Source: Somniosus microcephalus
Lineage: Eukaryota
Direction of reading: 5' to 3'
Length of the DNA: 64,000 nt
Assembly: GCA_052327205.1 (NCBI GenBank)
Contig: CM126207.1
Location: forward strand, 24,490,001 to 24,554,000
Below the pieces are notes generated by a model. That model was not told where the DNA came from. It did not search any database and worked only from the letters and a program-made list of their open reading frames with translations. Both the position numbers and the translations under genes were made by a program. Shown here in pieces: positions 6,558 through 46,781 of the stretch; within the stretch, counting starts at the first letter, position 1, and each line of letters begins with the position of its first letter.

Positions 6558-7244
6558 CTTTATTGTGCCTTAATTTATTTATTTATTTATTTAATAAACC
6601 CTACTACACCTAAGACTTATTGCTGCTAGTAAAATTCACAGTACTAATGAAACCTTACAATTACTAATACATTTCCTGGGCTTTAAAAGATAAGTGAGCA
6701 AAATACTCACCAACCAATAATTTACCCTTTTCCCTGTGATGTCACCTTTTATTTTTTCCGAATGCGGTTGGGGGGTTTCACAGAGCTGAACTGCCGCTGG
6801 TTCTCTGTTCCCTCTAATGCAGCTTTTTAACTCCTGCTCTCCTGGAGGCTGACCAAGATAGAAAAAGAAGAAAGGAGCACCTCCCACCTCGCCGAACTCC
6901 CTTACTCACCAAACTCGCAGGTTTACACTTTGTTCCAAGCTGCATGCCATGACAAACTGCACTCTAGCCTATTTATACTACTGAGATTTAAACGAGAGCT
7001 CTCTGGCAGTTACAGAACCAGCTTAGACCAGTTAATTAATTAACTAATCTCACCTGCTCTCCAGCACAGAGCTTGCTTAGCCCTGCCCAAGCCTGGAAGA
7101 AACTTAAAGCTTAAAACAGTAAATTTAAGTTAAATGCTAATTGCATGCACGCAAGACTAGGTTTTATAAAAATAAGAGATTAACCCTTAAGATTCACTCC
7201 CTTACTCACCAAACTCGCAGGTTTACACTCTGTTCCAAGCTGCA

Positions 7245-8056: not shown

Positions 8057-8925
8057 ACAAGTAACATTCACACCATGCAAGTGCTAGGCAATGACCATCT
8101 CCAACAAGAGAAAGTCTAACCACCTCCCCTTGACATCATCGAATCCCCCACCATCAACAGCCTAGGGGTCAACAGTGACCAAAAACTTAACTGGACCAGC
8201 CACATAAATACTGTGGCTACAAGAGCAGCTCAGAGATTGGGTATTCTGCGGCGAGTGACTCGCCTCCTGTCCAATTTTTTTTTTGTCCATTCAAAATTCC
8301 GTGCATGCATGATTTTTCAATTCAAAAGCTGGCTCACCGGCTGTATGGAACCTGCAGAGAGCTGCGCGGCATGAGAACATTGTTCCTGACTTCCCAAAGC
8401 GTTTCCACCATCTACAGACACAAGTCAAGAGTTTGATGAAAGACTCTCCACTTGCCAGGATGAATGCTGCTCCAACAACACTCAAGAAGCTCGACACCAT
8501 CCAGGACAAAGCAGCCTGCTTGATTGGCATTCCATCCACCACCTTAAATATTCACTCCCTCCACCACCGGCATACCGTGTCTCCAGTGTGTATCATCTAC
8601 AAGATGCACTGCAGCAGCCCGCCAAAACTTCTTCGAAAGCATCTCCCAAACCCGCAACCTCTACCACCTACAAGGACAAGGGCAGCAGATGCATGGGAAC
8701 ACCACCACTTCCAAGTTCCCCTCCAAGTCACACATCATCCTGACTTGGAAATATATCACCGATCCTTCATCATTGCTGGGTCAAAATTATGGGACTCCCT
8801 ATCTAACAGCATTGTGGGAGTACCTTCACCACATGGACTACAGCAGTTCAAGAAGGTGGCTCACCACCACCTTCTCGGGGGAAATTATGGTCTTGCCAGT
8901 GACGCTCACATCCCGTGAATGAATT
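8057..8925 (+). mobile_element. 3' fragment of a CR1/L2-group LINE, interrupted by a ~115-bp insert at ~8270-8385
   Basis: Degenerate RT C-terminal coding sequence (QKLNWTSHIN, LDTIQDKAACLIG) ending in a GAATGAAT-type tail; the insert is flanked by a repeated TCCTG. Confidence 0.8.
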
Positions 8926-11687: not shown

Positions 11688-12136
11688 TTTTAATTCATTT
11701 ATGGGATGTGGGTGTCGCTGGCAAGGCTAGCATTTATTGACCATCCCTAATTGCCCTTGAGAAGGTAATGGTGAGCCGCCGCCTTGAACCGCTGCAATCC
11801 TTGTGGTGAAGGTCTTACTATAGTTTCTTGTCGCGGTTTGATACTGAGTGACTTGGTGTGCCATTTCAGAGGACAGTTAAGAATCAACCACATTGCTGTG
11901 GGTCCGGAGTCACATATTGGCCAGGCCGGGTAAGGACAGCAGATTTCTTTCCCTAAAGGACATTAGTGAACCAGATGGATTTTTACGTCAATCCTGTAGT
12001 TTCATTGTCACTATTACTGATACTAGCTTTTTATTCCAGATTTATTTAATTAACTGAATTTTTTTAATTTCCCAGCTGTGTGGTGGGGTTTAAACTCATG
12101 TATCTGGATCATTAATCCAGGCCTCTGGGTTACTAG
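11688..12136 (-). mobile_element. tRNA-derived SINE whose 3' tail matches the LINE at 8057-8925
   Basis: Degenerate B-box near 12085-12100; the reverse complement of ~11690-11812 aligns with 8822-8925. Confidence 0.75.
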
Positions 12137-12417: not shown

Positions 12418-13179
12418 GGCCCAGAAATTCGGGTCCCCACACGTGAGTATGCACTGGGTACTCCCCTGTAGGCCCAACGAAAGTGCCGGTTTCCTGCATG
12501 CACTGCGCATGCGCGGGAAACCGGCACTTCCGTTCCCCTGAAAGAAGGGGTTCAGAGGTCGAACGTGTGCGCCGGAGAGGCAGCGCATGCGCATCGAACT
12601 TACGTTTTTTTTGCAGGTTTCTCCGGGAGGGTAAGTCTCCAGCAGTTACACTTTTAAAAAGCAGGCACAAGGCCTGCTTTTAACAAGGCAAGTGGTGAAT
12701 TAATTAAAATTAAAACATTTTTTCCACAGGTTTATTATTTTTAAATACTTTAAAGAAAGGTAAGTTTATTCTTAGCCCTGTTAGAAAATGTAATTAATTT
12801 TTTCAAAAATTTAAATTATTGTTTAAAATAGTTATTTCATATAATTTATAGTTATTTTAAAAATGTGATTTTTTAAAAATTTATTTGAAGTTTTAGTGAT
12901 GTTTTGGGGCTTATGGTATTTATAGGTTTTACAGCTCTTCCTGTCAAACTTATGAATGAAGCATTCCCTGCTACCATTGGCTCTCCATGGCCCACGTGAT
13001 CCCAGGGGCTGCATCGAATTAATTGTGCCCCTGGGATACGCAAGCACTGCGCGCCGGCAGTTGGAGGAGGTCCAGGATCGGAATCCCACGCGGGCCCACA
13101 GCTCAATGGCCGGCGCGCTAGGTAAGTGCAGGTCGGGGGTTTGCACCCGCGGGAAGCCTCCGACCCGAATTTCTGGGCC
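12418..13179. mobile_element. PIF/Harbinger-type MITE, 762 bp
   Basis: Perfect 18-bp terminal inverted repeat GGCCCAGAAATTCGGGTC (12418-12435 / 13162-13179); 3-bp target duplication AAT; GC-rich arms and AT-rich centre. Confidence 0.88.
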
Positions 13180-26022: not shown

Positions 26023-26220
26023 TTAAACGTACCATTCGTTAAAGTTCGATGAAAGCGTGCTGTGGTTGGATGTGTGGTGGACTGCAGAAGATGTTGGGGA
26101 CATTGAACTGTTGGTCTGGTTTTCTGTGGAGGGCGACACGATGGTGGGGGGTGTTGAGGACTCGTAGCCAGAACTTGCCGCAGGAGAAGGCTGTGACCCT
26201 TGAGAGGATGCTTCGTGGAC
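26023..26220 (-). CDS. zic1: Zic1 coding exon 3 ([30 protein letters not shown]...NFNEWYV*)
   Basis: TTTTTGTAG acceptor at 26221-26229; 198 nt ending in TAA at 26023-26025; characteristic Zic1 C-terminus. Not in the ORF track in this frame. Confidence 0.97.
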
Positions 26221-26580: not shown

Positions 26581-26904
<324 letters not shown>

Positions 26905-28364: not shown

Positions 28365-28619
28365 ACCTGTGTGAGTTCTTTTGTGGATCTTGAGGTTTTC
28401 TGATCTGGCAAAGACTTTGCCGCAGCCAGGGAATGGACAGGGGAATGGTTTCTCGCCAGTGTGGACTCTGATGTGATTTACAAGTTTATATTTGGCTTTG
28501 AAAGGCTTTCCCTCTCTTGGACACTCTTCCCAGAAGCAGATATGGTTCGACTGCTCTGGTCCCCCAACGTGTTCCACTGTTACGTGAGTAACCAGTTCGT
28601 GCATCGTGCTAAAAGTTTT
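28365..28619 (-). repeat. Left arm of a 255-bp near-perfect inverted repeat (partner 42940-43194)
   Basis: Manual alignment of the reverse complement against 42940-43194 gives 251/255 identity with no indels. Confidence 0.95.
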
Positions 28620-29342
28620 GTTGCAAGATTTTTTAGGATTCGTCAACTGTTCGGGCTCTACCCATTTACATATGAGTTCTTGCTTAATGGGCTGCCTCAT
28701 ATAACGAAAGAAGGCCCCGGCCCCATGGTGGGCCGCCATGTTCATGTTCATGGGGCCATAGCTGTGTAGCTGGGTCGAGGCGTAGTGGTCCGATCTGGGA
28801 CTAGTGACCTGGCTGTATTGGTCTGCTCTGCCATACATGTCCCCAGAAAAGCCTAAGCGCATTTGGCCGTTCATTACATGTGCATTGGGAGAAGCGTGGG
28901 TCGTCGCCTGCTCGTGAAGCCCCGGGAAGAGTAGGTGCCCCGCAGCGTCAGTATGTCCATGGGGTCCCGCAAAACTGCCCGCAGCCGCCGCCGAAGCGAA
29001 CAGGCTGTGCCCGGCGCTGGCTGCCGCCGCTTCCCCAAAGCCCCGATTGCGAAACAAAAAGTCCCGGGTCGAGTTGAACGCCGCGCTGCTGTACGAACTC
29101 ACATGGCTGGGATGGTGACCTAGAGCCGCGGCGTAGCCTGGAGCCTGCGACGTGAAGGCAGTTTGACCCGATGCGAGATCGTGAGTGCTGGGGCTGATTT
29201 TAAAAGCACCCATCCCGTCAGCGAAAGGATTTATCCCCAGCCCCACTTCTCGATCGTTGACATCGCCTGTTGAGTGATGTCGGGATGATCCGAAGGTAGT
29301 CACTCCTAGAGTAGGATATTGAGGTCCAGCGTCCAGAAGCAT
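28367..29342 (-). CDS. zic1: Zic1 coding exon 1 (N-terminus, ZOC box, ZF-NC, zinc fingers 1-3); spliced protein 445 aa
   Basis: Starts [10 protein letters not shown] at ATG 29342; [10 protein letters not shown] (ZOC), [14 protein letters not shown] (ZF-NC); phase-1 GTATGG donor after HTG; 976+164+198=1338 nt. Confidence 0.98.
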
Positions 29343-29689
29343 CGTCTGGCGATGGGGGTGGAGAAGGAATAATGATACAAAATAAAGAAAAGCAAGCGAC
29401 AAAGATCTCACAACGAAACTTGCTTAATATAAAATAGTCTCTGAGTCTGTTTGGAGGACTTGCAAAAACTCCTTATTTTTCTTTCTCCCTCTTCTCTCTT
29501 CGGCGTGTGGGAATTTGCTGGAGATATTTTTCCCCCTCTGCAAACGCAAATCATGCAATATTGTCTTTTGCGGTTTATCTTCCTGGGGAGAAACTTTCAC
29601 CTCGTCAGCCGGGCGGTGAGCTCGAGAATGATAGCGGCAATCATTCCTGCAGATAAATGAATTGAAAAGACAACACCATCCCCTTGATG

Positions 29690-29880
29690 AATGGGAGTTG
29701 GGGGAGGAGTCACGTGGCGCTCGGCGTCTATGCCCATTGGCCAGCCCCGCGCTGCCCCGTTGCGCCCTGCCGCCAATCAACGGCCCGCGGCGCTCGTCCC
29801 GCCTCCTGATTGGCCCGCGCGCCTCATCAATCCCAGGTATTGTGCGCGCCTGACAGTCGCTCCTGATAAATTATTGTCGA
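29690..29880 (-). promoter_or_regulatory. zic1: Zic1 proximal promoter (CpG-rich, CCAAT boxes, E-box)
   Basis: CACGTG at 29711-29716; three CCAAT/ATTGG boxes between ~29735 and 29815; GC boxes; 350-500 nt upstream of the ATG. Confidence 0.7.
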
Positions 29881-32800
29881 GTCCAGATTTTCTTTCTTTT
29901 TCTCTTCTCTCTTTTTTTTAATATAATATGGAAAGAGGAGGGGGGGGGAAGGGGGGTGGGGGGAGAGAGAGAGAGAACTGAAGAAAAACTCTTGTCTTCT
30001 TCGACTTCACAATTCAGTCACCCCTTGTCAGACTGTTTGAAATTCGTTAATGTGCCACAACTCCAGACGAGAAAAAAAGCGGGCGGCTTCCTTTGTTGTT
30101 CAGTAGCTTTTTGATCGCCGGTGAAAATTCACTTACCCAGATGAGTGAGCAAAAAGAGAAAGAACACTCTTTTGAATTGGGTTAGGAAAATGCATATGTT
30201 TGGATTCAGTACAAACATACAACACTTGGTTGTTTTCGAGACGAAACCCTTGATTAACCTGTCTTTCCCCATGTAAAAGGCGATTGAAAACATCTTGCTT
30301 GGGCCTTTTTTTTCCATGGTGACAATGAATTGCTCTATACATATCTATAGGCTCTCAAACAATTGCAGAATAGCTGCAAGTAAGGATTCCCCCCCTTTTT
30401 TAAAAAAAAGGTTTGGTGCTCTTTTCATTGATTGCGAACAAAGAAAGAGAAAAATGGTTTATGAATACTCAGCTAAGAAAAATGTAGCTCCTTCCCACGT
30501 CATGTTTTAGTTTATACCTTGCCATTCACAACCCCAAATTTGTTAAAGTCCATCTTCTGTGTTTCTGTAAAGTAATTTAATTATTTACGTGAGGCCAACG
30601 GTTTGCATATTCATTAAGTCTAATTATATTCTAGTAATAGAAACGTAAAAAGCCAACAAAGAATCGGAATCGTTCAATTTACCTTTTGTTCACCACTTCA
30701 ATGAGCTTCCTTGAAGCTAAATCTGTGTGTTAAAGTCTTATTTTATAACAAAGAAGCTTTACCGCATCCTTTAATAATTATCTCCGTTAGTAAACCATCA
30801 CTTTGGAAGGACACTGATTGAAATAGTTGTCTTGTTTCCTCAACCCCCGCCCCTTCCCAATTCAGCCTTTTCTTATCGAAAAACATATTTACACGAACAC
30901 TTGTGCTCGCTTACTTTTTTTAGCTAATACTTTTTAAAGGTTTTCATATAAAGGTACAACAGGTTAACTTCGAAAAAGGGTTTTCGCGCGCGAAGGTATT
31001 GGCGTAAGTGAAAGTGCCGGCGGTTTAAATGACTACCTTCCGACGTTCTACGGCAGCGAAGTTCCAGTTATATTTAACAGCAGCGTTATTGTCCAAGGAA
31101 ACAAGTTTATCATTAAATGTTAGGAAGCTGAGGGACAATGTACACGCGGGGACCTTGTAGCTGCAAAGAATTTAAAGCGGGTGCCTCTTGAGTGCATATT
31201 CCCAGTTCACGACAATTTGGGGCTGTATGCTTACTTTGCCGCAACAATACCAGGCGGTGTGGATGTTTAATAGAGAATTGCAAATGTAGATTTTAGATGC
31301 TTTAATGATCTAGAATTGTCTTATGCGAGGGTATCTGTTATAGTTAATCTGACTTATCCGATGCAATAGATCCCACGCTTGTTGTGCACATAATGAAATG
31401 TTATTTTTCTGCTTTAGTCGTGTACTCTGCACCCGAAGAATTAAATGGAACGTGATATTGTCTTGCTGAGTGATTACAATAGCTAACATCATAGCATTAC
31501 TTTAAATGATGCAATATACTGAAAACATGGATATTAAAATCACAGCAGTCAAGTAGCAGAGGCTGGAGTAATTTGATTCAAAAAGATTTACTGCTCATTG
31601 AAAGAGTGTGCAAATTCTAAAGGGACACTTTAAGAGTATGAAAAGTAAACGTTTCCCATCGCATAATCTTTAGGCTACATCTCCAAATATACAAAGAAGG
31701 GCTGATTTTAAAAGTTGTGGGATGGTAGAAGTTATCAAGTGGGATTTGCGGCGCTCTCCGCAGGAAACGCAGGCTGCTTGAGTTCAAAGCCACATGCACC
31801 GACGTGACATATAAGCCATTAAAATATCATCCTGACGGCTCATTTCTGCTTCATCATACATTCCCTAACTGCTTCCAGAAACCTTGAAAAGGCGAAATGA
31901 AGAATGACTACCTAGTCAGAGCTACAAAGTAGATTTTTTTTTACTTCGAAGTTACCTGAATTAAAAGATCGAAGACATCTTCTTCAACAGGTGGAGGACG
32001 GTAAGAGAGGCACGTGTATTCAAGTGACTTTTACTAAACGACTCCTGACCTCTGAATTTCCATCATCTTTCATGTAAATGCAATTGACTAAAAAGAGAAT
32101 AGAGATATCAGTCAGATTTTTGTTTCCTCAGAATAGCCCTTGTCAGGGGCCATCATGTTCTAATAAAAACAAAACTAGGTGCGAGTGGCTCTGAATTATG
32201 CATTTCCATTCGAATGCACTTGTGTGTACCGATATTATCCCTCGGATTGTTTTCAGTCGATGGATAGCAAAGCATTTAGTTGTTCTGTGAAGGGAGGGTG
32301 GGGGGGGGGACATTTGCCTCGGGGTTGAAGTGTTAGTTTACAAAAGGAATTGTTTTTACTTGATTTAAAATTCTGGCTATTTTCATTGAGTCTAATTTAA
32401 AATTTAAATTTGATTTATAACTTGAAACGAAGTTAATCTTTCAATCGTTTATTTGCGACTAATATGTATGAACTGTTGCTCTCGTTAAAGTGCAGTTTTA
32501 CTTGTACGTGCACTTGCACCTAGAATTGTTTTATGCGCGAATGTATGTTTGAGTACAGTGGAAGCTCTTCAAAAAGTGCGCTGAGCAACGCGTGTCCTTT
32601 ATCCGCGTTCTCCTGTTAAGCAAATGCTTTAGAATATTGAGGTAATGAATTGATGTTTGCGTCCACGCTCCCTTTAAACACATATTCCCATTAACGGAAT
32701 GCCATTTAAGTGAATTCAATTGTAATGCAAAAGTTATCTTGCAAATTTGTTCCTGATGACTGACCCCAGCACCGCATATTTAATTGATACCTTTTTTTAG

Positions 32801-34927
32801 ACATGATTTTACGCATTATTTGAAATGCCCTGATACTAAATGCCACTGTAGAGTCAGGATTCTTTGTATACCGTTTCCGTGTGTTAGATACCGTTTCGTT
32901 TCTTATACTTATCCCTATTAAAACTGATTCGAATGAAGTTAGTCAGTTGGCTTTTGCGCGCTAGGATAGCTCTGATGTCGCCGACTTTTGAAATACCATA
33001 TCGTTTGACCCCTGACCCGTGACCGACCACATGTGCCAGAGCCACACAATGCCACATAATGCATACCTTCGAAAATATTAGCTGTGCTGAAAGTAAAGTC
33101 ACTGACCAAAGTTGGAAACAATAGTTCAAAATATAAGTGCTCTTTATTTTGACCAGCAAACGGATTGTATATTTTTTTCCTATTATCACGTTGATATAAA
33201 TCTGTCCTATAGTTATATCCACAATAGGGGTTCCAGTGGTGAGTGCTTCAATGATTTGTTTCTTTATTGTGTGTTTTTTTTAAACTTTCTTTTCTTATTA
33301 TTCATGCAACCGAGATTATGTATGATTTGTACACTTGCACTGAAAAAAAAACCTCAACAAAGCAAACCCAAATTTCAGCTCGTATTCCAGCGATGCCTGG
33401 GCAAACTCAAGTATTAACTGTGAGTTAAAATAGCACCCAACGCCTCGCATTTAAACAGATTATTATACTTCCGATTAGGCAGACACGCGCATTTCGAGTA
33501 TTTTATTTCAAGCAGCCCATGACTTTGAATTAAAATTCCAACTGCCAAAGGTTTGTGTTAGAAACTTTGGGGGGTGGGGGGAAGTTTTGAAGGTCACCCT
33601 TGCCTTTACCCATTATCCGCTTGCCCGCCTTGAGATCTGTGCCTCACATCACCGTTAGAGATTTGATTGGTATTTGGGGCGATGTGTTCAGACAGAGCTA
33701 TTTCCATTTTCTGAAATTATTTCCAACATATATAAAAAGTAATATTCCCATGTGAATTTCGCGTTACAATCTTTATAGGTATTTTACCCAACGTGTTGGA
33801 GTGTCCCGAGTTTGAAATAAAAGATTCTGACACTAATTCCTCTATCTTTTTACTGAATTTATTCACGGGCGTTTAAAGATTACGCAAAATGTTAAAACCT
33901 AGAGAATTCTACATTTTAGGGAGGACAAACTTTTTGTATCCTTGTTTTCCCCTGTTCGGACGTCTGTGGAACAGTAACCCTAACAGAGGCTATGATCACA
34001 TTGGAAATACGCGTGTTTTTGTTGAAATGTATATTTTCGATTTTAAAAAAGCTACCGTAAAGTATATCAGGACACAAATGCTTTCACGTTGTACCCGAAA
34101 ATTTAGCAGGTTTGGGGGATTGGGGGGGGGGGGGGGGGGACGAGTTCGTGAGGACTATCTCGGGCCAAACTATCAGCAGCTGTAGTTAAGTTTAAAGTTA
34201 AGGAGACAAATCTACAGCAAGAACTGAAACGTCACAAATATATCCTGCAAATAATATGGTATTGGGCCAAATAAAATTCGAGAAAAAAAATGTAAGCAAC
34301 ATAACTGAAAAAATAGGAAGCCATGCCTACTATGGCGGTTTTTGATCAATAATTTCTTCTGGAAAATATTACGTTCACACAGTAATCATTTTTTTTAGTA
34401 TTACTAGATGCATGCTATACACAAGTAGCCTTTCAACTGTTCAACAGGACAAAGGTTCGCCCCATTAGATTTGTCCAGGTATCCACTGCGACGCTATGAT
34501 TCCGTTCTTGTAGCATAAAACCTGACTAGAAGAAATTGAAACTAAAAATATAAGCGAACCGTGTCATTTTGTCAGTCTTATTATTTATTAAAAGAACATC
34601 TGTATCCTTAAAGCACACGCCCAACAACTTTCAACGTTGCTTCATTGGAATCGCTTGGTCTATCTATTTAGTTATCTGGCTATTTATTTACCTGGCTATT
34701 TATTTATCTGCAACATTGTACCAAAAAAAGTTACTACGACTGCACTTTTTTTTAGGTTGTCAAACATCCCATGGTGTTGCTGGCGCTGTCTGAGGTATGT
34801 GTAATTTAACGGAATGGACGTATCTTGGAATAAAGTGCAGACTCTTAAAAATTACACTTACAGTGAAAGATGACGCTGCACTGGGTATTTTGCAGGTCTG
34901 TGTATTTTTTTAAACTGCTACAGATGC

Positions 34928-35092
34928 ACGCACACACACATACACACACATAAACACACTCATACATACACATATACACTCACACACACACAAATATACA
35001 CTCACACACATAAACACACTCACATACAAATGCACACACACACACTCACACACACACATGCATACACATAGACACACTCACATACACACACA
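34928..35092. repeat. Degenerate (CA)n microsatellite
   Basis: Visible ~165-bp CA-rich tract. Confidence 0.92.
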
Positions 35093-38000
35093 AAATCATG
35101 CTTCAAAAATAGAGTTGCTCGTCACAGTTTTTTGGGAATTTCTTTCCATCGACCTAATTTAAAATCGTGACTGTGTACAAGTTAAAATATAGGCATCGCC
35201 AGTTCCAATACAGGTGCGACGTTTAACATCATCGAATGATTAACTTGCAGCTAACTTAGAAATTACACTCACTGAAATCCAGGCTTGCATGTGACTGAAT
35301 CAATTGTTCATCATATTCGAATTCCCGCAATTATATTTAAAACCACTGTTTATACTAAACGAATGTAATGGGTTGTTTCAGGTCTTACCATGGCATCATT
35401 GCACTCTCAATAATATACCAAGGAAGTAAAAGTTGTAATTTGCTCACTTGGTAAGTTATTGGCACAAAAGTTTATATTATCTTCTGAATAAATATGAATA
35501 CGGTGAGGTCTGTGTAACCGCAATCGTTGCCTGACGAGACTATCAGTATAAAAAAACACTTACCTATGGAATTAGGATCAAACATAAACATTTTAAAAGG
35601 CACTGGGACCTCTCTTAACTCGTGGTTTTCAACCTCCAGTCTGTATCGTTGTCACTTACAGTGTTTTATGTGGTCGCATACTGTACAAATTAGTGACAGT
35701 ACATCCCACAAGCAGCTGTTTGCTGTAGTTCAATGTTCTCTGCGTGGCAGTACTAGAATTAATATTTGACGACCATCGCATTGTAACAACAACCTTCGAC
35801 CCGGTGTGCTTGGAATGCCACATTATTCTATGACACTTGCTTTCTTTAATTCATTTACGGACGATTTGAGTGTAATGAAAGTTGGAAGCGTATTTGGATC
35901 AATTTAAGACTGAGGCTTTGATCTCTTTGATGGGTTTCTACCCGCTTATAAGTCTCGGGGTTACAGGTATCAACATTGCAGTGTTTAATCACAGCCACAT
36001 CCACTCGGACCGTATCAGAAAAGCTTTCCAAATTTACAAACTGTTTAACAACGATAGAGAGGTAATGTACAGAAGTTAGCAGAAATATATCTGTCGGTTT
36101 ACTGTCGCCAAAACTAGTTGCTTGTGAAAAGCTGGCAGGAGGAATGGCCACAACTTTGAAAGTGTATTTCTTTTCCTCACAATCGTTCTGTATTTACACC
36201 GTGAGAAGACAGCCGCATAACTTGTGGACCCATTTAAAACTAAAGCTATCACAGCATTAATATTTTCTGGCAATACCAATAAGGATATCGCTCAAATTTG
36301 TAGACTTCACAAGTATATTTTTTGTAAACTGGTCTGTTGTTGTAAAATATTTAAAATATTCGCAAAGATAGTGCTTTGCATTCGTTACACAAATACAACG
36401 GCGAGTTTAAACGTGCTTCTTGTTAGAGTAACCATTCTGCATTGATACAATCGTGTGCATATTATATAGAATGAATGGTGCAAGTTGTCTTGTTTCTAGT
36501 TTCTTTCCCTAGCACTTTAGAGTTCCAGCCATACACTGGTTATAGGGGACACAGACCACGATGGCTATCTCCGCGATCAGCGTAGCAGGTAAATGAACGA
36601 GTCATATGGTATCTGTTTCTGAAATGGAATTGTGTTTGAAATCTCGCAATATCCTATATTATTGAGGTTCTATGTGCAGTACGTTTACGTTGCGGCGATA
36701 CTAAAGGTGTAACTGGTGACCTTAAATGAACTATAACTAGAGGTGTATATAGGGTCCCCAGTTTTCTCTGCCATGGTGATAACTTGTTATCACACCCTAA
36801 CTTCCTTCGATGGGAGAAAGTGTAAAGCATAGTGAAACAAATGCTTGCTTCCGTCTAGTATCTCATGCCTGTAGAATACGACTACACTGCCTCGATACAG
36901 GTTTCCTAGCCTTTTATTACTTAAATTGTTATTACAAATATATAATAGCATTTTTTTATTTTAAAGCTGACGTTTGCAACATTGCACGTGTGCAAAGCAG
37001 GTATGATGTCGTTACTGAAGCATTGTCCAGGCAAAACCAAACAATGCAATCAATAGGTGCTGCTTGAAGAATACTTTCAATAATGTCATTAACCAACCAA
37101 CAGTCTAACGGTTATTGGTACATAACATTAACATCGTCAGTTACTAGGGGGAGGGGTCTCTATGCGGCATCATATATAGGGCAAGTACAGAATAAACATT
37201 TTTTTAAAGGGAATAAATCGGCAATACAGTAAAGGTAAAGCGTAACCCTGCTTTCAGTTCTTTAACTTGCACCACACTGATGATGCTAATTAACCGCAGT
37301 GTATCATTCAGTATGTTATAGTTACTACGTTTCTTTAATCTGGGATAGTTTTCTTGTTTAATTCTTGTTTCTTAATAGGAACTGTTTGCATATTTTGCAC
37401 ATAAACATGCTACACGACTTTTTCTGAATCAAAATTCTTTAACTAAATATTTACAAATGCATCTCGATGAAGGCAGAATGCACCGAATTCTAGCAACATA
37501 TATGATTACTAATGTAAATCACACACAGCTTGTGTGTGTGGAGTCAATCCTAGCAATTCATAAACTAGCCCATTCTATTTTGCGTTTTTGTAAATGTTAT
37601 TGCAGGTTTCATGTTCCTCGATTTTATTTTAAGTCCTTTTTTGGATGATTGAATGGGGAAATCATATCCCTTCCCCAGAAATGTAATTGGATCATAGTAT
37701 TTGTTGACAACGTTCTCAGATTAAACCTTATGATTTAAACTGCAAACATGCACAAACCCATACACATACAACCAAGGCAAATTAATCTGTAGTAAAAATG
37801 AAGTATTTCCTTGTTCATTACGCTAAACGTTTGGTGGGAGGGTTGAAAGGTACAAGTATAACGCATGGAATCTTGGGAATCTAAATAACGAGGCTTCTAA
37901 GCTGTTTTTTCAAATCGAGTTTGTGATTAAAAAGGGCTTATGAAAATATTGCATTAAAACAACGCCAGAGTTGAGCTTCAGTAAAAAGAAAGGGGTTTCC

Positions 38001-41000
38001 CTAAACTGCTTTCTCTCAACGCGTTTCTCGAAAACAAATTTCGCGAGAAAATAATTTAATTTGGAATTTACACTGCTCAGTTGTAATATAACCAAAGCGA
38101 ATACCACGCCTATTTGTTGCATTTCTAATAGGTTTTTTTTCCGCTGGGCTTCACTCTGCACTAGGGTTTAATCAAGGTTCCTTAGCATCTCTGTTGGACT
38201 TCTTTAGTGTTGATCCTGTAGTCTGCAAACCTGGAATTCTGCAATAATTTCCTGTTTATAATGGGGTACAGGAAGCTGTGAACTGCCCGCCATAAGAGGG
38301 GTATAACGTCTGCCTCGTGTTATTCTGTGACATCTTAATCACATAGAGAAATATCCTGTCGATATCAAAAGTAGTAGTAACACGCTAATTTCTGGAGCAT
38401 TTAGTTTGGGGCACAATATAAACCATATTTAGAGCAAAAAAAACTTTCTACACTTTATCAACGTTTACAATCTTTGCAAATAAATTAAACGATAAGCTGG
38501 AAGGATCAATTACGTAAAATGGAAAGGTAAACCAAAGAACCTTCACCTTAACTGTATCTTTAGATATTAGTGTACACATTATGGTGCCGTACACATATTA
38601 TACTTAACCTAAAGTACAAAACTCTCCATCTGGTCAAATAACGTTGACAATGAAGGATCAGCAACGTGATCGCTATTTATATTTCAAATGAAGAGTACTG
38701 TTTTCTCAAAAGTCCGTTGTAATGAAATAGTCTTCCTTTCTAAGTCTTATATTTCAACAACATTAAATAATATAGCAAAAGTCAGAGCTCCATGTAACGT
38801 TATGTGTAATAAACGTATACTTGTATTGCACTCACTCACAAGCTGTAAATTGATTATTTTACAATACGATTACTTAGGAGTTTCTATTACACTATGTTTA
38901 CGTTTTGGGAAACATTTATATATTGCAACGTGCGTAAGCACTGTGTCCTTTTTTAGGGACTGTCACTTGCGACTGAGAAATTGCTCGAAAGACAACGGAC
39001 AAACTGACACCAAGGTGGGGGCTTAACCAGGTAATGCAGCAGCACATGTACAAATCCCAGTCTAAGCCTGCAGTGTGAAGCCCTGGAGGCTAAAATACAA
39101 ACGTGTCAACACTCACAGATCCACATTACATTCTTCTCTATTACACGTTAGAGCTTTGGGTGAAAAATAACTCCAAATCGTGCTGGTTATTAACTCCGTT
39201 TTGATTCCGAGTGATGGTCTGAGACAGGGGTTCAACATTATGGCAGATGTAAATAACATGGGTATAAACAGAAAGGAAAATGCCAGCAATTGAAACACTT
39301 ATTGTGGATAATGAGAAAAATATACAGCGTTTTGCAGCTTTTAATGCAACTTTAATCTAGCCTTGGTTGTACAGCATTAAAATATTCTAAAGCCTTTACT
39401 ACCTACATTTGAAATGACTACTCAATAGTGAATATGAGTTAATTACATTTTTTGCATTATCTGAATGGCGTGTCTTCAGCTAATTTACGTTTTGGGGTTT
39501 AGTGTTTACAAATTCAGCGAGCCCTTCATTATATTTAACTTGCTACGACTGCAGAGAATTGTTTTGAACAACTGTGTGATCTTTTTTCCCACCGCCATAC
39601 CCCTACCCCTCCCCCACGTGTTCTCATCTGATCATACTTTTTTTTTAGCATTTTTCTTTCTTGTTCGGAGTGTTTGCCTGTCTCTGGATATGTTCCTCGC
39701 ACGTATATAGCACTGCTTACGTCTTTCTACTTCTTATTTTTCTCCCACCTTAAATTTGCACTTTCTCTTCCCCCCCCCCCCCCCACCCCACCCAATCCCA
39801 TAAATTTCTGCCCACGCTATTGCTCCCACCTCCCTTTCAAAAACCTACCTTTTTCTCTCTCTTGTATTGTAGGTCTGCTGTGCGCTAGACTGCAGGCTTC
39901 AAGCCCTGTCGCGGATCAGCTTAGGACGGCGGCCTAAATCCACGGATATCGCAGCACCAGGTTTCCGTTCCCCCTTTAGCTCTCTTGCTGAACAATCTAA
40001 AGGGCTACAACGTACATATTTGAGTTAGTAGCCCGTTTTGTCATTCTCTTCCTCCCTGAAAAATAAAGCCTAAACTACTTTTTACGTACACGGCGAGATG
40101 GTTAGACAGACGTATGTACTCAGGGCGAGTTAAACCAACGATGTGCACTAAGGACAAGTTACAGTTGCAGACATAAGACTATATATTGGGGGGAGGGATT
40201 GTGGCTAGCAGTACGTTCTGGTATTAGAAGAAAAATATGAAAACGTGAGGCTGCTATAACGAGCGGAGTTCGGTCTAAACAGCCTCTCATTCATGTGTGT
40301 ACGGAGACGCATACAAGTCACTGGCAATCTATCATTGCGCTATCTTTCTCTATGCCTCCCGATAGTCCATTACAGTTTACTTTTCTCTCCCCCAGCGATG
40401 CGAGTTTCCCATTCGCAGATTACACAGTGTTTATAGATTCTCGAAGCACGGTGTCGGTTCGCCTTCACAAACTGTGTCTTGGAATTGGAAACACGTTTTT
40501 TTTGTAAACTGCAATGCACGTTTGCATCCATGTGATGCAGGCGGTAATTCAAATCTCTTGACAATCTGTCGAAACAAAGTATTGAAACAAAAAAAAAACT
40601 TGCCAAGCCTAAGAAAATAAAAGTATCTCCCCGCCCCATCCCACACCCCTCCATGAGAACCACAGCTTCCCCGGATTTTGACTTACAGAATTACCAACCC
40701 GGGACTGCAGGCAGGGAACTCAATAAGTTCGTACATGCTGAGCAAAGTTTCAGACTCAGTCTCGGGGAGAGAGAAAAAAAGTGAACAGATGCCTTTGACT
40801 GGGGATCTCTTTGATCGTCTGCGCCGCTAAGAACAACCAGCCGTCTGATTTTGTCAAAAAAACATAACACGCCTGGAAGTCGGCTGGTGTCAGGAGAGAT
40901 AAAAATCACTAACTAATTTCCCGCCTGAGCATAACAGGCCATAACCTCATTTTCAGTTCAGTGCTGTCTGCGCCTTCCTTCTTTCCCACAAAAAGCTAAA

Positions 41001-41719
41001 TTCTTGCATAAGCCGCAGGAGCTGGTGCGGATAAATAAAGGGGTGTGCGGGGCACGGTGCGAGATATTACTAAGTAGATGGCGGTGTTTGACCGGCTCGA
41101 TGGAAGGATAAACTTTCCAACGCTTCTAACTGTATATTTGTTCGTGAAACAAACACCATTGCAACACCTCATAAATTATCAAATCCTGCTGCAATACACT
41201 TTTTCGCTGTCCTCTTCAGCCTGATAGACGGTTCCATATCAACACCATCATAAAAGTGCGAGTAGATGTCTATTAATAAGCAGCGGATCTAATTTAATTG
41301 CATAATGTAAGGAAACTTTACAAATATATAGATAGATAAATAATTAAGGAGTAACCTTCACCAGAACCGTTAAATCCTGTCCCAATCCATCGTTGGTTGA
41401 TGGATCTTATTGTCTTCCCCCTCCCCTCAACACTCCAAGAAATGAATTACAAAATGATCAAGTGTCTAACGTAGAGGGTTAAAAAAAAAACACTAAACAT
41501 TCACTCTTTGCGGTAAAAAAAAATCCCGCTCAGATCAACTTTTAAAATCTGCATTGTTGTTATTTAAGGAAAAGTGGCCTTCAGCAGCAGAAAATCTGTT
41601 AAAACGAGCTTACAAAACAGTTACAAGGTTTTGCTAATAAAATTAGTATGGTGCAAGAAACCAACAAAACAAAACCCACATCCTGCAGCCAAAAAAGACT
41701 TTTCTGTGTTCTGTTCAAC

Positions 41720-41900
41720 ACCCCTCTCGCCGCCCCCCCCCCCCCCCCCCCCCGCACCCCCGGTGTAATACGCATGTGCCCTGACTGGGGTCCGTAACTG
41801 GCGCTGTCAATCATCGGAAACTGACCAATGAGATTGCGTGTTGCTCGCGGAGCTCGACGGGCTGCAAAGCTGTTCATGAATCTCAATTCAGTTTCTCAAT
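41720..41900 (+). promoter_or_regulatory. zic4: Zic4 proximal promoter candidate
   Basis: Long C-run/GC box at ~41730-41760, CCAAT at ~41825 and a CpG cluster 130-300 nt upstream of the ATG. Confidence 0.55.
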
Positions 41901-42030
41901 GCGTCCTGCTGCTGCTATCCGTCTGCACTCTCTACACCGAATGGCTATCCACGTTGGCAAAGAGCGAGTTTCTAAAGTTCGGTAACTTAAAAAAAAAGTT
42001 TCTTTTATTATTTTCCTGCTGTCCTGCATT

Positions 42031-43192
42031 ATGAGCATGGATGCTTTGGGGAGTCCGATGATGGACCCATCATTCGCCAAAAGAAACCCAGCGCTGAGAT
42101 TAGTAGATTTGGCAGGAGCTCACCACCATCATCATCACCATCCCCCTCAGAGCATGACAGGCTTCCCGGGGCTCAGCGGCCATCCCCACTCAATGGCACA
42201 CACGCACCCTGGGGAGAGTACTGGAGAAGCCCGCCTGGGGCCGAGTCCATTCGGGCCTGAACACATGGGGCACCCTGCAGCCGCTGCTGCGCTTAAACTC
42301 AGCCCAACCCATCCCCACCACCATCACCACCATCATCATCACCATCATATGGCAGGCCACGCTGAGGTTGTCTCCAATCCAACGGCAGCTTTTGGCCCAG
42401 CGCAGGCAGCAGCAGCAGTCAGTTACTCGGTCTCGCACTCCCACGCCAGCTATACTGCCCAGGCTATCTCGGCAGGTAGAGACTTCCTCATCCGCAGAGA
42501 TCTGACATCCTCAGTCATGCCTGGGCTCACTGATCAATATCCTGGCACAAGTTCTCACCACGGAATGTTTGTATCAACAACAGGTAGCTACCCCGGACAC
42601 CATGGTCACCCCGAGGCTGGAAGCCACTCTTTATTCCCTGGACTCCATGATCAGGCTCCCCATGCAGCCCCAACTGGACACCATCTGAACGGACAGTTAA
42701 GACTGGGGCTACCTGGAGACATGTACGCCAGGTCTGAGCACTACAGCCAAGTGGCAAGTTCCAGGAGTGATCCCTTTGCATCTTCCCCTCTACATGGCTA
42801 CGGTGGCATGAATATTAACATGAACTTAACTGCCCACCACGGTCCAGGTGCATTCTTTCGCTACATGAGACAACCCATCAAGCAGGAACTGATCTGCAAG
42901 TGGACTGAACCGGACCCTGTCACTAAAAAGCCATGCTCAAAAACTTTTAGCACGATGCACGAACTGGTTACTCACGTAACCGTGGAACACGTTGGGGGAC
43001 CAGAGCAGTCGAATCATATCTGCTTCTGGGAAGAGTGTCCAAGAGAGGGAAAGGCTTTCAAAGCCAAATATAAACTTGTAAATCACATCAGAGTCCACAC
43101 TGGCGAGAAACCATTCCCCTGTCCATTCCCTGGCTGCGGCAAAGTCTTTGCCAGATCAGAAAATCTCAAGATCCACAAAAGAACTCACACAG
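42031..43192 (+). CDS. zic4: Zic4 coding exon 1 (N-terminus with poly-His tracts, ZF-NC, zinc fingers 1-3); spliced protein 532 aa
   Basis: [28 protein letters not shown] start typical of fish Zic4/Zic5 types; His7 (42121-42141) and His11 (42316-42348); GTCAGT phase-1 donor after HTG; head-to-head with Zic1. Confidence 0.95.
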
Positions 43193-43194
43193 GT
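42940..43194 (+). repeat. Right arm of the 255-bp inverted repeat (partner 28365-28619)
   Basis: Mismatches only at 42981, 43014, 43054 and 43164. Confidence 0.95.
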
Positions 43195-46100
43195 CAGTAT
43201 TTTCGAAGGATCATTAATCCATTTTTATTTCATTTTCGGTGTACAAAAGTTAATAAAATAATGTTTTCGGTTTAATACCGGTGGGAATTCAATCCAAATG
43301 CTCAGCGAAGCTGGGCTTTATGTGGCTTGGAAAATAGCCTATTTTTTTTTACAGCATTTCTATAAATCACACAGCTCTGAGAACTTTGTAATGTTGTGGA
43401 TAATAAATAATTAATAATGTTTTAGCTGTAAACGGCTTTCCGGTTACAGATAATAAAGCTGTCCTGATTCAATTTCTACCGAAATTAAAAGCCACTAGAT
43501 TTCTTCCTTTCAGTTGCAGTTAAAGGTTGTTACAAAACATGACACTCGGATCTCTGCGAACACTGTTTTGACGTTAAGTAGGGTTCAGTGGAAGCTTTTG
43601 CGGATGATTTAGAATTATTAAAGAGTAGAATACATTGTCTATTTTGTTCTGTTGTTTTTTGTTAGGATCCACACACATAACAGTATTATTTTTAATCATT
43701 GTATGTTGTATCTGTACTGCAAGTGTGTATGTGCTTAGGGTAATCTACTGGCCATAGTTATTTTTAAAAATCTAAACATGTTATAGGCCTAAGACTAATG
43801 AAAACAAATGTGTAGGCCTATGTTTCGAAAAATGTCATTTGCAGAACCATTTGTGAAACTGGGACATGTGTCAAAAACATCTGCTAGCTCCACTTAGCAG
43901 CGAGTAAACTGAGTCGATCGAAGCTTATTCAAAGCTACATTTGAACTTCCCAGGCCAGGGTAATTTATAAGTAATGAAACCGCACTTATAAAATTTTCAC
44001 ACTCCCTGGAACAGCCTCTATTAATTGGTTTTTACAGCAACGGTTCGATACTTGCTCCTTGTATTGTAGTCTGCCTTGAGCGCGGCCTTGCTCGGCTACT
44101 AGACATTGCAGGGAAATTGTAGATCTGAACAATTCCCCACCGAGTTACTCCTTAAACGTTGGACATTTTTCAATGTTATGATCCATTCTATGTTAGCAAA
44201 ACGTGTTTTCTTGGTTGGTTTCCTTTACTTCTCGAGTATAGTTGGCGGAGGGGAGGATGGGGAGGAGGGGGTTGGGGGGCGGGGGGGGGGGGAGATTCTC
44301 CGTGAAATCAGTAGACACAATTTAACCCGAGGCACTTTGCTTCACTAAAACTTGTAAACTCTTCCCAAACTGTCCGCTTGCGTTCTTTTCTTCGTTCTGC
44401 CTCAGTTATATGCTGTATTTATTCGCTCCATAATTGTGCCATGTTGGTTTGCTTTTTATTGGAACCGAAGTGTATTTTCAATGTACATCGGATCACGAGG
44501 TGGTTTGTAGGCCTTTTTATAGGTATAACCCTGGTTGCATTTTGAATTCAAAACATAATTTTCCCTTTACAGTATAAACTAAACATCGCCGATGGCGCCA
44601 ATAAATTGAAGCGTATGGGTAAACAAAACAAAATGCTTAGAGCATTGTTGTAGCAGTGATAATGTGTAAAATGGATATTGCAAAAATATTTCACGTAATG
44701 ATGATATTACGTTTAGTGCTTTTAAATAGTCTAACGTATAATATAATACATATAAATGCATGTGTTGTGGGTGCAGAATAGGCACACTGACTGTGCGTAT
44801 CTGACACTTGATAGCATTGTATTGTGCCTGCCTAAACAAACTTTCCCAGCACTTCATCGACTCCAGTTCAGCAGTTTAGAGTGCTGAGCACTTAATTTAC
44901 AAGAGCAATTCATTCGACCGGCCGTATTGCTATTTATTTAAAAATAATGTAGTAACCAATAGAGGAGCTGTGTGTTTAGTAGCGTCGAATGCTTACACAT
45001 TCCCATATTTCAGTTAAATAGCGATCTCCATATGTTGCAATTAATCACTGTAATTGTGATAAATATTGCATTTCTCTTTCAGTTTAAAATTGCAAACACT
45101 AATGTTACTAAATTCTTAAATAAAAAATAGCAAGTATAGTAATTCTATTAACAAAGTAATTATCTTGTAAAATATTCATGCCGTTTGATTGGCTTCAGTC
45201 CTTTATAGGCAAATTTTATTGAATTGAAATCCCGTCCCTTTTACATTATTTATTTCAACAAGCATGAAAAGATCGCCTCTGGGTAAACAGAGGCTTCAGT
45301 AGTTTTGTCACCTCACTTATAAAATATTACCGTATAAAGTCTAAATCTAGAATTAAACATGGATATTAAAAAGATTGATTAGAACGCGCAAACAGCTTGT
45401 AGAGTTTATCACCAGGTAGCCATTTTTTTTCTAAGTTATCCAATGCAAAGTTTAAATTCAATTTCAGGGAGGCTTTTTTCGACTTATTTATTTTAGCCAG
45501 GACTAAGCTAACTGGTGAGATGACACTTAACAAGGATTGGTCGCAGTTAATCTTACATTACTCACTCCTTTATACACAGCATTAATAGTAAAGAAGGAGA
45601 AATGTGTAGCCAGAAGGAGTTTAGAGCTCTCGGGAATTGGCAGAGCAGACTTCATGCTCGTAGTGTCGGACGCTCCAGACACGGCACAATAACAGTGTTT
45701 ATGAGTCTGGGCTTCCCCATGGGTCCACTAACTTACTACTAGCTTGTACTACACTAATATCGTTGATTGGTCGTCTCAACCTAGCAAGTGAAGGTCAAAT
45801 TATTCTAACGGCTTTCTGAACGTTTGGCTAATTACGGTGTAATATTAAATCGACATTTTGAGAGTTCGGTGAAGGGTCTCTGTTGCAAAGCACGTAGCTT
45901 TGCACTGTAGCCGCATTGTTTTACATTTGCCACAGATAGTGTTTTTAAAATCTTAGATTTAATGATGTTGCAATGTTTTATTAGAATAGTTATAATTAAA
46001 GTTTTTTTTTGAAAAAGTTTTTTATTCCCCACCCCTGCTGTTTCAGAAATCCATTGTAAGCCACTATGAGCAAGTGACTGCTGTTTAGGCCTTGGCGTTA

Positions 46101-46344: not shown

Positions 46345-46781
46345 GAGAAAAACCCTTCAAATGCGAGTTTGAAGGCTGTGACAGACGTTTTGCTAACAGC
46401 AGCGACAGGAAAAAGCACTCTCATGTGCATACAAGTGACAAGCCCTATAACTGCAAAATAAGAGGCTGTGATAAATCGTACACGCACCCCAGTTCCCTTC
46501 GTAAGCACATGAAGGTCCACTGCAAATCTCCTCCTCCCAGCTCGGGCTACGAATCCTCCACCCCTTCGCTGGTATCTCCTTCTTCGGACTCAGGCCGGGA
46601 CCCCCCGGCTCCAGCCTCCCAGCTTGACCCCATCACATCTTCCCACGCAGCTAACCTGAGCGAATGGTATGTGTGTCAAAGCACAGGAGCAAGTGGTATT
46701 CCAACACCTCCAAGCAATGCATCATCACCTGGACCAGGAGAGCACGCTTACAGAAACTCTGACCCCAGAACTATTCACTAA
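46345..46781 (+). CDS. zic4: Zic4 coding exon 2 (zinc fingers 4-5 and C-terminus)
   Basis: TTTTCTTTTAG acceptor ending 46344; KKHSHVH and CKIRGC (C-x4-C ZF5) are Zic4/5-type signatures; 1162+437=1599 nt ending TAA. Confidence 0.96.

Follow-up and report, generated by a model that had tools for sequence, protein, structure and literature searches.

Concerted evolution between old, linked regulatory genes has precedents. In hexapods, engrailed and invected, an old inverted homeobox pair of insects, reportedly evolve in concert (attributed to Peel, Telford and Akam in 2006). Theory predicts that old duplicates escape conversion for good after their silent sites have become saturated. Among the closest described systems is that of the annelid Capitella teleta, in which the inverted, linked developmental transcription factor genes Dlxa and Dlxb share a conversion tract of 150 bp that covers the DNA-binding domain, the rest having diverged; these are homeodomain genes in tail-to-tail orientation, and the tract enters an intron (PMC3199776). 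In mammals and cartilaginous fishes, the Lefty bi-gene clusters group by lineage, and conversion has been proposed for sharks, rays, and chimaeras, but it is ambiguous how old the pair is, with independent duplication as a competing explanation, and the effect reaches the protein tree (PMC12344233). The linked pairs BMP8A/B (inverted), DDX19A/B, and TUBG1/2 combine converted and diverged parts with boundaries conserved across species; they are about 100 million years old, their tracts cover both exons and introns, and the case for recurrence was built on species-wise trees (PMC2720389). According to a 2024 review, conversion has been little studied in vertebrate developmental genes (PMC12344233).

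The window analyzed here is the whole stretch of 64,000 nucleotides from Somniosus microcephalus, which contains Zic1 and Zic4. Like the Capitella Dlx genes, these are inverted, linked developmental transcription factor genes with a near-identical tract over the DNA-binding domain and a diverged remainder. They differ from the Dlx genes in that they encode C2H2 fingers, lie head-to-head, are older than the vertebrate genome duplications, and show the tract in five organisms. Like Lefty, they are a vertebrate developmental pair, but their age is fixed by the sister pairs Zic2/Zic5 and Zic3/Zic6, and their tract is sub-exonic with sharp edges. They resemble BMP8A/B, DDX19A/B, and TUBG1/2 in being linked and in having converted and diverged parts, but they are several times older; ZIC is not mentioned in that study (PMC2720389). 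The Zic tandem duplication is older than the vertebrate genome duplications (PMC7403390), for which one study gives a date of more than 525 million years ago (PMC4166920). No report of Zic gene conversion was found in the open-access literature, where a medaka genome paper was the only one found to bring together Zic1, Zic4, and "gene conversion". The process itself is already known from Capitella Dlx, Lefty, and BMP8A/B; what is unusual is the age of the pair together with the unconverted state of its sister pairs.

Zic1 is encoded on the reverse strand, with the coding part of exon 1 at 28367..29342, exon 2 (ZF4-5) at 26683..26846, and a predicted exon 3 coding part reaching the stop codon at 26023..26220. 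The exon 1-2 junction is present in contigs of two putative RNA runs. Zic4 is encoded on the forward strand, with the coding part of exon 1 at 42031..43192 and that of exon 2 (ZF4-5 and the C-terminus, to the stop codon) at 46345..46781. Exon 2 is unconverted in both. The best named protein matches were a catshark ZIC4 (96%) and a chimaera ZIC1 (95%), which by themselves place the window in a cartilaginous fish, most likely a shark. Both proteins have five fingers with an atypical ZF1, and the top PDB match is the ZIC3 structure 2rpc. Zic1 (subclass A) and Zic4 (subclass B) form a divergent pair, each with the N-terminus and ZF4-5 typical of its subclass.

The genome (G000) contains six Zic genes in three inverted pairs, with one match each; the duplication is old, and copy number and gene structure are stable. 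Zic2 and Zic5 have the inverted geometry of Zic1/Zic4 and lie about 12 kb apart. An intact Zic6 is found opposite Zic3 at a distance of about 579 kb (L005 and L006; G000:C1:458629881-458630132 and G000:C1:459208679-459208930); a chimaera protein (P0098) also resembles Zic6, and zic6 is said to persist in teleosts only (PMC6771876). Within the window, the two-gene locus (24001-50000) has CpG observed/expected ratios of 0.46-1.04 in 1-kb bins despite low GC, a pattern that resembles a broad unmethylated developmental domain. Elsewhere in the window there are an inverted pair with about 71% identity (8822-8925 and 11692-11813), probably a mobile element present in two old copies, a 49-nt direct repeat with one difference (6896-6944 and 7196-7244, 300 nt apart), and an imperfect palindrome of 59 nt (12476-12534).

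The reverse complement of 28365..28619 (the Zic1 arm, reverse strand) matches 42940..43194 (the Zic4 arm, forward strand) at 251 of 255 bases (98.4%). Four positions differ: 42981, 43014, and 43164 are silent, and 43054 codes for Pro in Zic1 and Ala in Zic4. The longest perfect run has 109 nt (43055..43163, forward strand). Each arm is the 3′ end of exon 1 in one of two intact head-to-head genes and comprises the second half of ZF1, ZF2, ZF3, and the splice-donor GT; the arms are inverted, and their inner ends lie 14,320 nt apart. The edges are alike in both genes, from the K codon of KTFSTM to the GT of the intron. Next to the second ZF1 cysteine comes a residue that, in nearly all orthologues among the matches listed, is Asn for Zic1 and Ser for Zic4; the left edge is the codon immediately after it. 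Beside this edge lies a boundary zone (42877..42939, forward strand) with the ZF1 Cys-Cys spacer, paralogue-specific residues, and a two-codon length difference between Zic1 and Zic4; 10 of its 14 same-residue codons differ. The tract coincides with a block of Zic1/Zic4 protein identity and fills it to both edges. The initial annotation had described the match with its four differences, the 109-nt run, and the extent of the tract from KTFSTM to the GT of the shared intron, and our recomputation gave the same values in both genes, as it did for the protein-identical segment of 19 codons upstream, in which 12 codons differ.

Both edges are steps, and sliding windows likewise show the near-identity to be local. 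Upstream, 75 of 110 same-residue codons differ between Zic1 and Zic4, the far N-terminal alignment being loose; downstream, over the first 34 codons of exon 2, 17 of 33 do. The dissimilarity claimed earlier for exon 2 therefore stands, but it affects about half of these codons and not most third positions. The first 24 codons of exon 2 are protein-identical between the two genes and saturated at silent sites. When the window was compared with itself by BLASTN, no Zic1/Zic4 similarity was found outside the tract apart from exon 2 and the remainder of the exon 1 end.

We compared the same 84 codons in the six Zic genes of the genome, scoring same-residue codons. Only 3 of 81 differ between Zic1 and Zic4, compared with 42-54% in every one of the other 14 pairs, whose longest perfect runs reach 11-20 nt where that of Zic1/Zic4 reaches 109 nt. 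Set against two flanking controls (29 of 50 codons differing), the tract is sharply distinct (Fisher P = 1.7e-12). Separate trees for the tract and for exon 2, which had been proposed across species, were here built from these six genes, and the grouping switches. The upstream exon 1 protein tree (support 100/100) and the exon 2 DNA tree (97/96) separate Zic1/2/3 from Zic4/5/6, whereas the tract tree joins Zic1 and Zic4 (93/90, the bootstrap of 93 falling below the tool's mark of 95). The paralogues are thus alike locally, silent sites included, and differ in affinity between tract and flanks. The two sister pairs were considered as converted pairs and rejected. Zic2/Zic5, to which the initial annotation wished the comparison extended, is saturated (36 of 75 codons differ), as is Zic3/Zic6 (34 of 67). 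Conversion is not family-wide, there being nothing of the kind in either pair, and the geometry of Zic1/Zic4 fails as an explanation because Zic2/Zic5 is arranged alike, about 12 kb apart, and is unconverted.

Contigs from four of 23 listed runs, representing four other organisms and four studies, were placed on 42760-43300; run X1 was omitted as a possible source of the assembly. In all four runs, a contig with Zic1 upstream sequence appears as a loose end at 42940 beside the Zic4 upstream contig, and both run into common sequence. In X11, this is a single 255-nt contig covering exactly 42940-43194, at a depth of 9.63 against 4.69-6.88 in the four flanking contigs. X10 has a 240-nt shared contig (depth 13.6 vs. 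4.56-8.41), and X15 one of 254 nt. In X19 (organism I), the copies are common over 42940-43064 and 43141-43193 and follow two paths over 43065-43140, with seven silent differences. The ratios of shared to flanking depth, 1.96 and 1.75, are noisy enough that a few hidden differences are possible. Assemblers remove short bubbles, and a merged contig is read here as evidence of near-identity, with anchors of about 30 nt that match exactly, short of proof of full identity.

These contigs also bear on age. At 42981, all four relatives carry the Zic1 letter, in X10 in both gene-specific contigs; at 43164, all four carry the Zic4 letter, including the Zic1-specific contigs of X11, X15, and X19. Of the four differences, these two at least thus appear to be private to the lineage of the window, and the homogenization is therefore older than its split from the four relatives. 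In about 100 nt of intron, organism E departs from the window at seven listed sites. The Ala at 43054 is also found in organisms D and E, Pro is found in both copies of organism I, and all 12 named shark and ray Zic4 proteins among the matches listed have Pro. The same Pro to Ala change in ZF2 occurs in many fish Zic5 proteins among those compared, so it is evidently tolerated in subclass B.

The best explanation, and a highly probable one, is gene conversion between the inverted Zic1 and Zic4, 14 kb apart, before the lineage separated from at least four relatives. One arm would have suffered a double-strand break and been repaired with the other arm as template, probably through a fold-back on the same chromosome. 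Conversions confined to the block of identical protein would be neutral and able to fix, and longer ones would erase paralogue-specific residues or find no homology. Selection and falling homology would then stop tracts on the left, at the paralogue-specific residues of the ZF1 spacer, and the end of homology at the intron would stop them on the right. Base composition points weakly to Zic4 as the donor: at third positions, the tract has a GC of 0.49-0.50, closer to the Zic4 flanks (0.52-0.54) than to the Zic1 flanks (0.60-0.67). A teleost Zic4 is about equally far from both shark copies (203 and 204 of 252) and as an outgroup gives no signal on direction. There is no sign of GC-biased gene conversion in the form of a third-position GC rise in the tract relative to the flanks (0.49-0.50 vs. 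0.52-0.67).

The earlier claim of conversion is upheld by the contigs of the other organisms and by the saturation of the teleost Zic4, but its two qualifiers fared less well. "Recent" has to be qualified, as five organisms have the homogenization in common and no fewer than two of the four differences seem private to this lineage. "Recurrent" was not borne out: merged contigs can conceal isolated differences, and for no other species is a substitution proven to be common to the two copies. The candidates for shared changes, 43005 and 43023 in organism I, 43011 in E, and 43143 in D, all lie in merged contigs that possibly hide differences.

Exchange may nevertheless have recurred, and repeated overlapping events appear somewhat more likely than a single one, because the tract fills the block exactly and because a first event at about 80% identity would be rare. 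Rates of substitution are slow in sharks, and a single chance conversion in a shark ancestor, with the likeness kept since by slow change and no later exchange, is a substantial alternative to which we give somewhat less than even weight. It agrees with the apparently private states at 42981 and 43164, with an Ala at 43054 that is also present in D and E and never spread to the Zic1 of this shark, and with the copies of organism I, which differ at seven sites at least. One of these copies has six changes in 76 nt against about four in 235 nt elsewhere, a post hoc comparison that speaks against a single event. The clustering is not significant after a window scan (P = 0.10; a fixed-window Fisher test, also post hoc, gives P = 0.016), and neither is the 6:1 asymmetry between the copies (P = 0.125), so that one ancestral event fits too. 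Such an event is hard to reconcile with a tract that reaches both edges of the identical-protein block exactly. Conversion needs long perfect homology, and saturated Zic pairs, with their common runs of 11-20 nt only, would have been a poor substrate for a first event.

A more far-reaching form of repeated exchange seems doubtful to us. Here the block would have been exchanged on and off since the duplication, before the genome doublings; the slow-changing sharks never escaped, and the bony fish, Zic2/Zic5, and Zic3/Zic6 did. The tract edge would again be held in place by selection on the ZF1 spacer, which is paralogue-specific. If true, few cases of concerted evolution between a pair of single-copy transcription factors in vertebrates would have lasted as long.

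We surveyed proteins in 24 same-species or same-genus Zic1/Zic4 pairs, hand-picked from the matches. A derived residue common to both genes occurs in three pairs, always at sites that change often: P34A in two of three frog pairs and I27V in one of two salamander pairs. The frog pairs (P0291/P0025 and P0292/P0041) come from two distant frogs with Ala at tract residue 34 in both genes, which we treat as a mere lead for conversion because the site changes often. No shared derived residue was found in 12 ray-finned fish pairs, in two ray pairs (Ser in Zic1 and Pro in Zic4 at residue 34 in both), or in five amniote pairs, of which four are identical to the shark sequence and so uninformative. In ray-finned fish, Zic1 and Zic4 each have their own fixed changes in the tract, and exchange there has therefore likely ended. 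The initial annotation had expected conversion to mislead Zic phylogenies; for protein-based trees the effect is small, because the tract is nearly invariant as protein.

That the donor was a reverse-transcribed mRNA, which would explain the stop at the exon end, is quite unlikely. The right edge does coincide with the boundary of exon 1, but the homology of a genomic donor ends there too, a spliced donor would bring along exon 2, whose first 24 protein-identical codons are saturated, and the introns are intact in both genes.

Selection on the DNA or RNA itself (an exonic enhancer, a splicing signal, or RNA structure) that fixed both copies since the duplication is more improbable still. The tract orthologues of the five organisms are 97-99% alike and the locus is CpG-rich throughout, as such constraint would have it. 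Fourteen silent tract sites nevertheless vary among these five close relatives, and upstream Zic4 coding sequence varies among them at a similar rate. The initial annotation had named constraint as the reading to be tested with distant orthologues, and this was done in part, with the one non-shark vertebrate Zic DNA compared. Among 80 metagenome loci, one (L020, a teleost Zic4) was clear vertebrate Zic DNA, and there was none in prokaryote genomes or viral contigs. Between it and the shark Zic4, 44 of 79 same-residue codons differ, so it is saturated at tract sites, as are Zic2 and Zic3, the true sisters of Zic1. Silent sites of the tract are free to change among orthologues and cannot have kept one state in both genes since the duplication, which leaves copying from gene to gene as the explanation.

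Polishing may merge near-identical copies, and the initial annotation had itself raised an artefact, but the chance that an assembly or polishing error overwrote one arm with the other, close together as they are, is negligible, because, in a partial run of the check then proposed, four other organisms from four studies show the same merged stretch and edges at about double depth in contigs made without this reference, the four arm differences have states that recur in other organisms, and mis-mapping presupposes near-identity in the first place.

The functional effect of the conversion is probably small, because the two proteins are nearly identical in the tract in many vertebrates. In practice, the tract collapses in short-read assemblies, and in sharks, reads, probes, and primers placed there therefore cannot separate the two genes. 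As a legacy marker in fish phylogeny, ZIC1 has known paralogue trouble (10.1101/2020.02.18.949735). The three sister pairs, of one age and in one genome, amount to a natural experiment in which one pair is converted, with sharp edges, and two are not. The locus makes it testable whether slow evolution in sharks prolongs concerted evolution, and it suggests that very old regulatory gene pairs are likely still able to exchange DNA.
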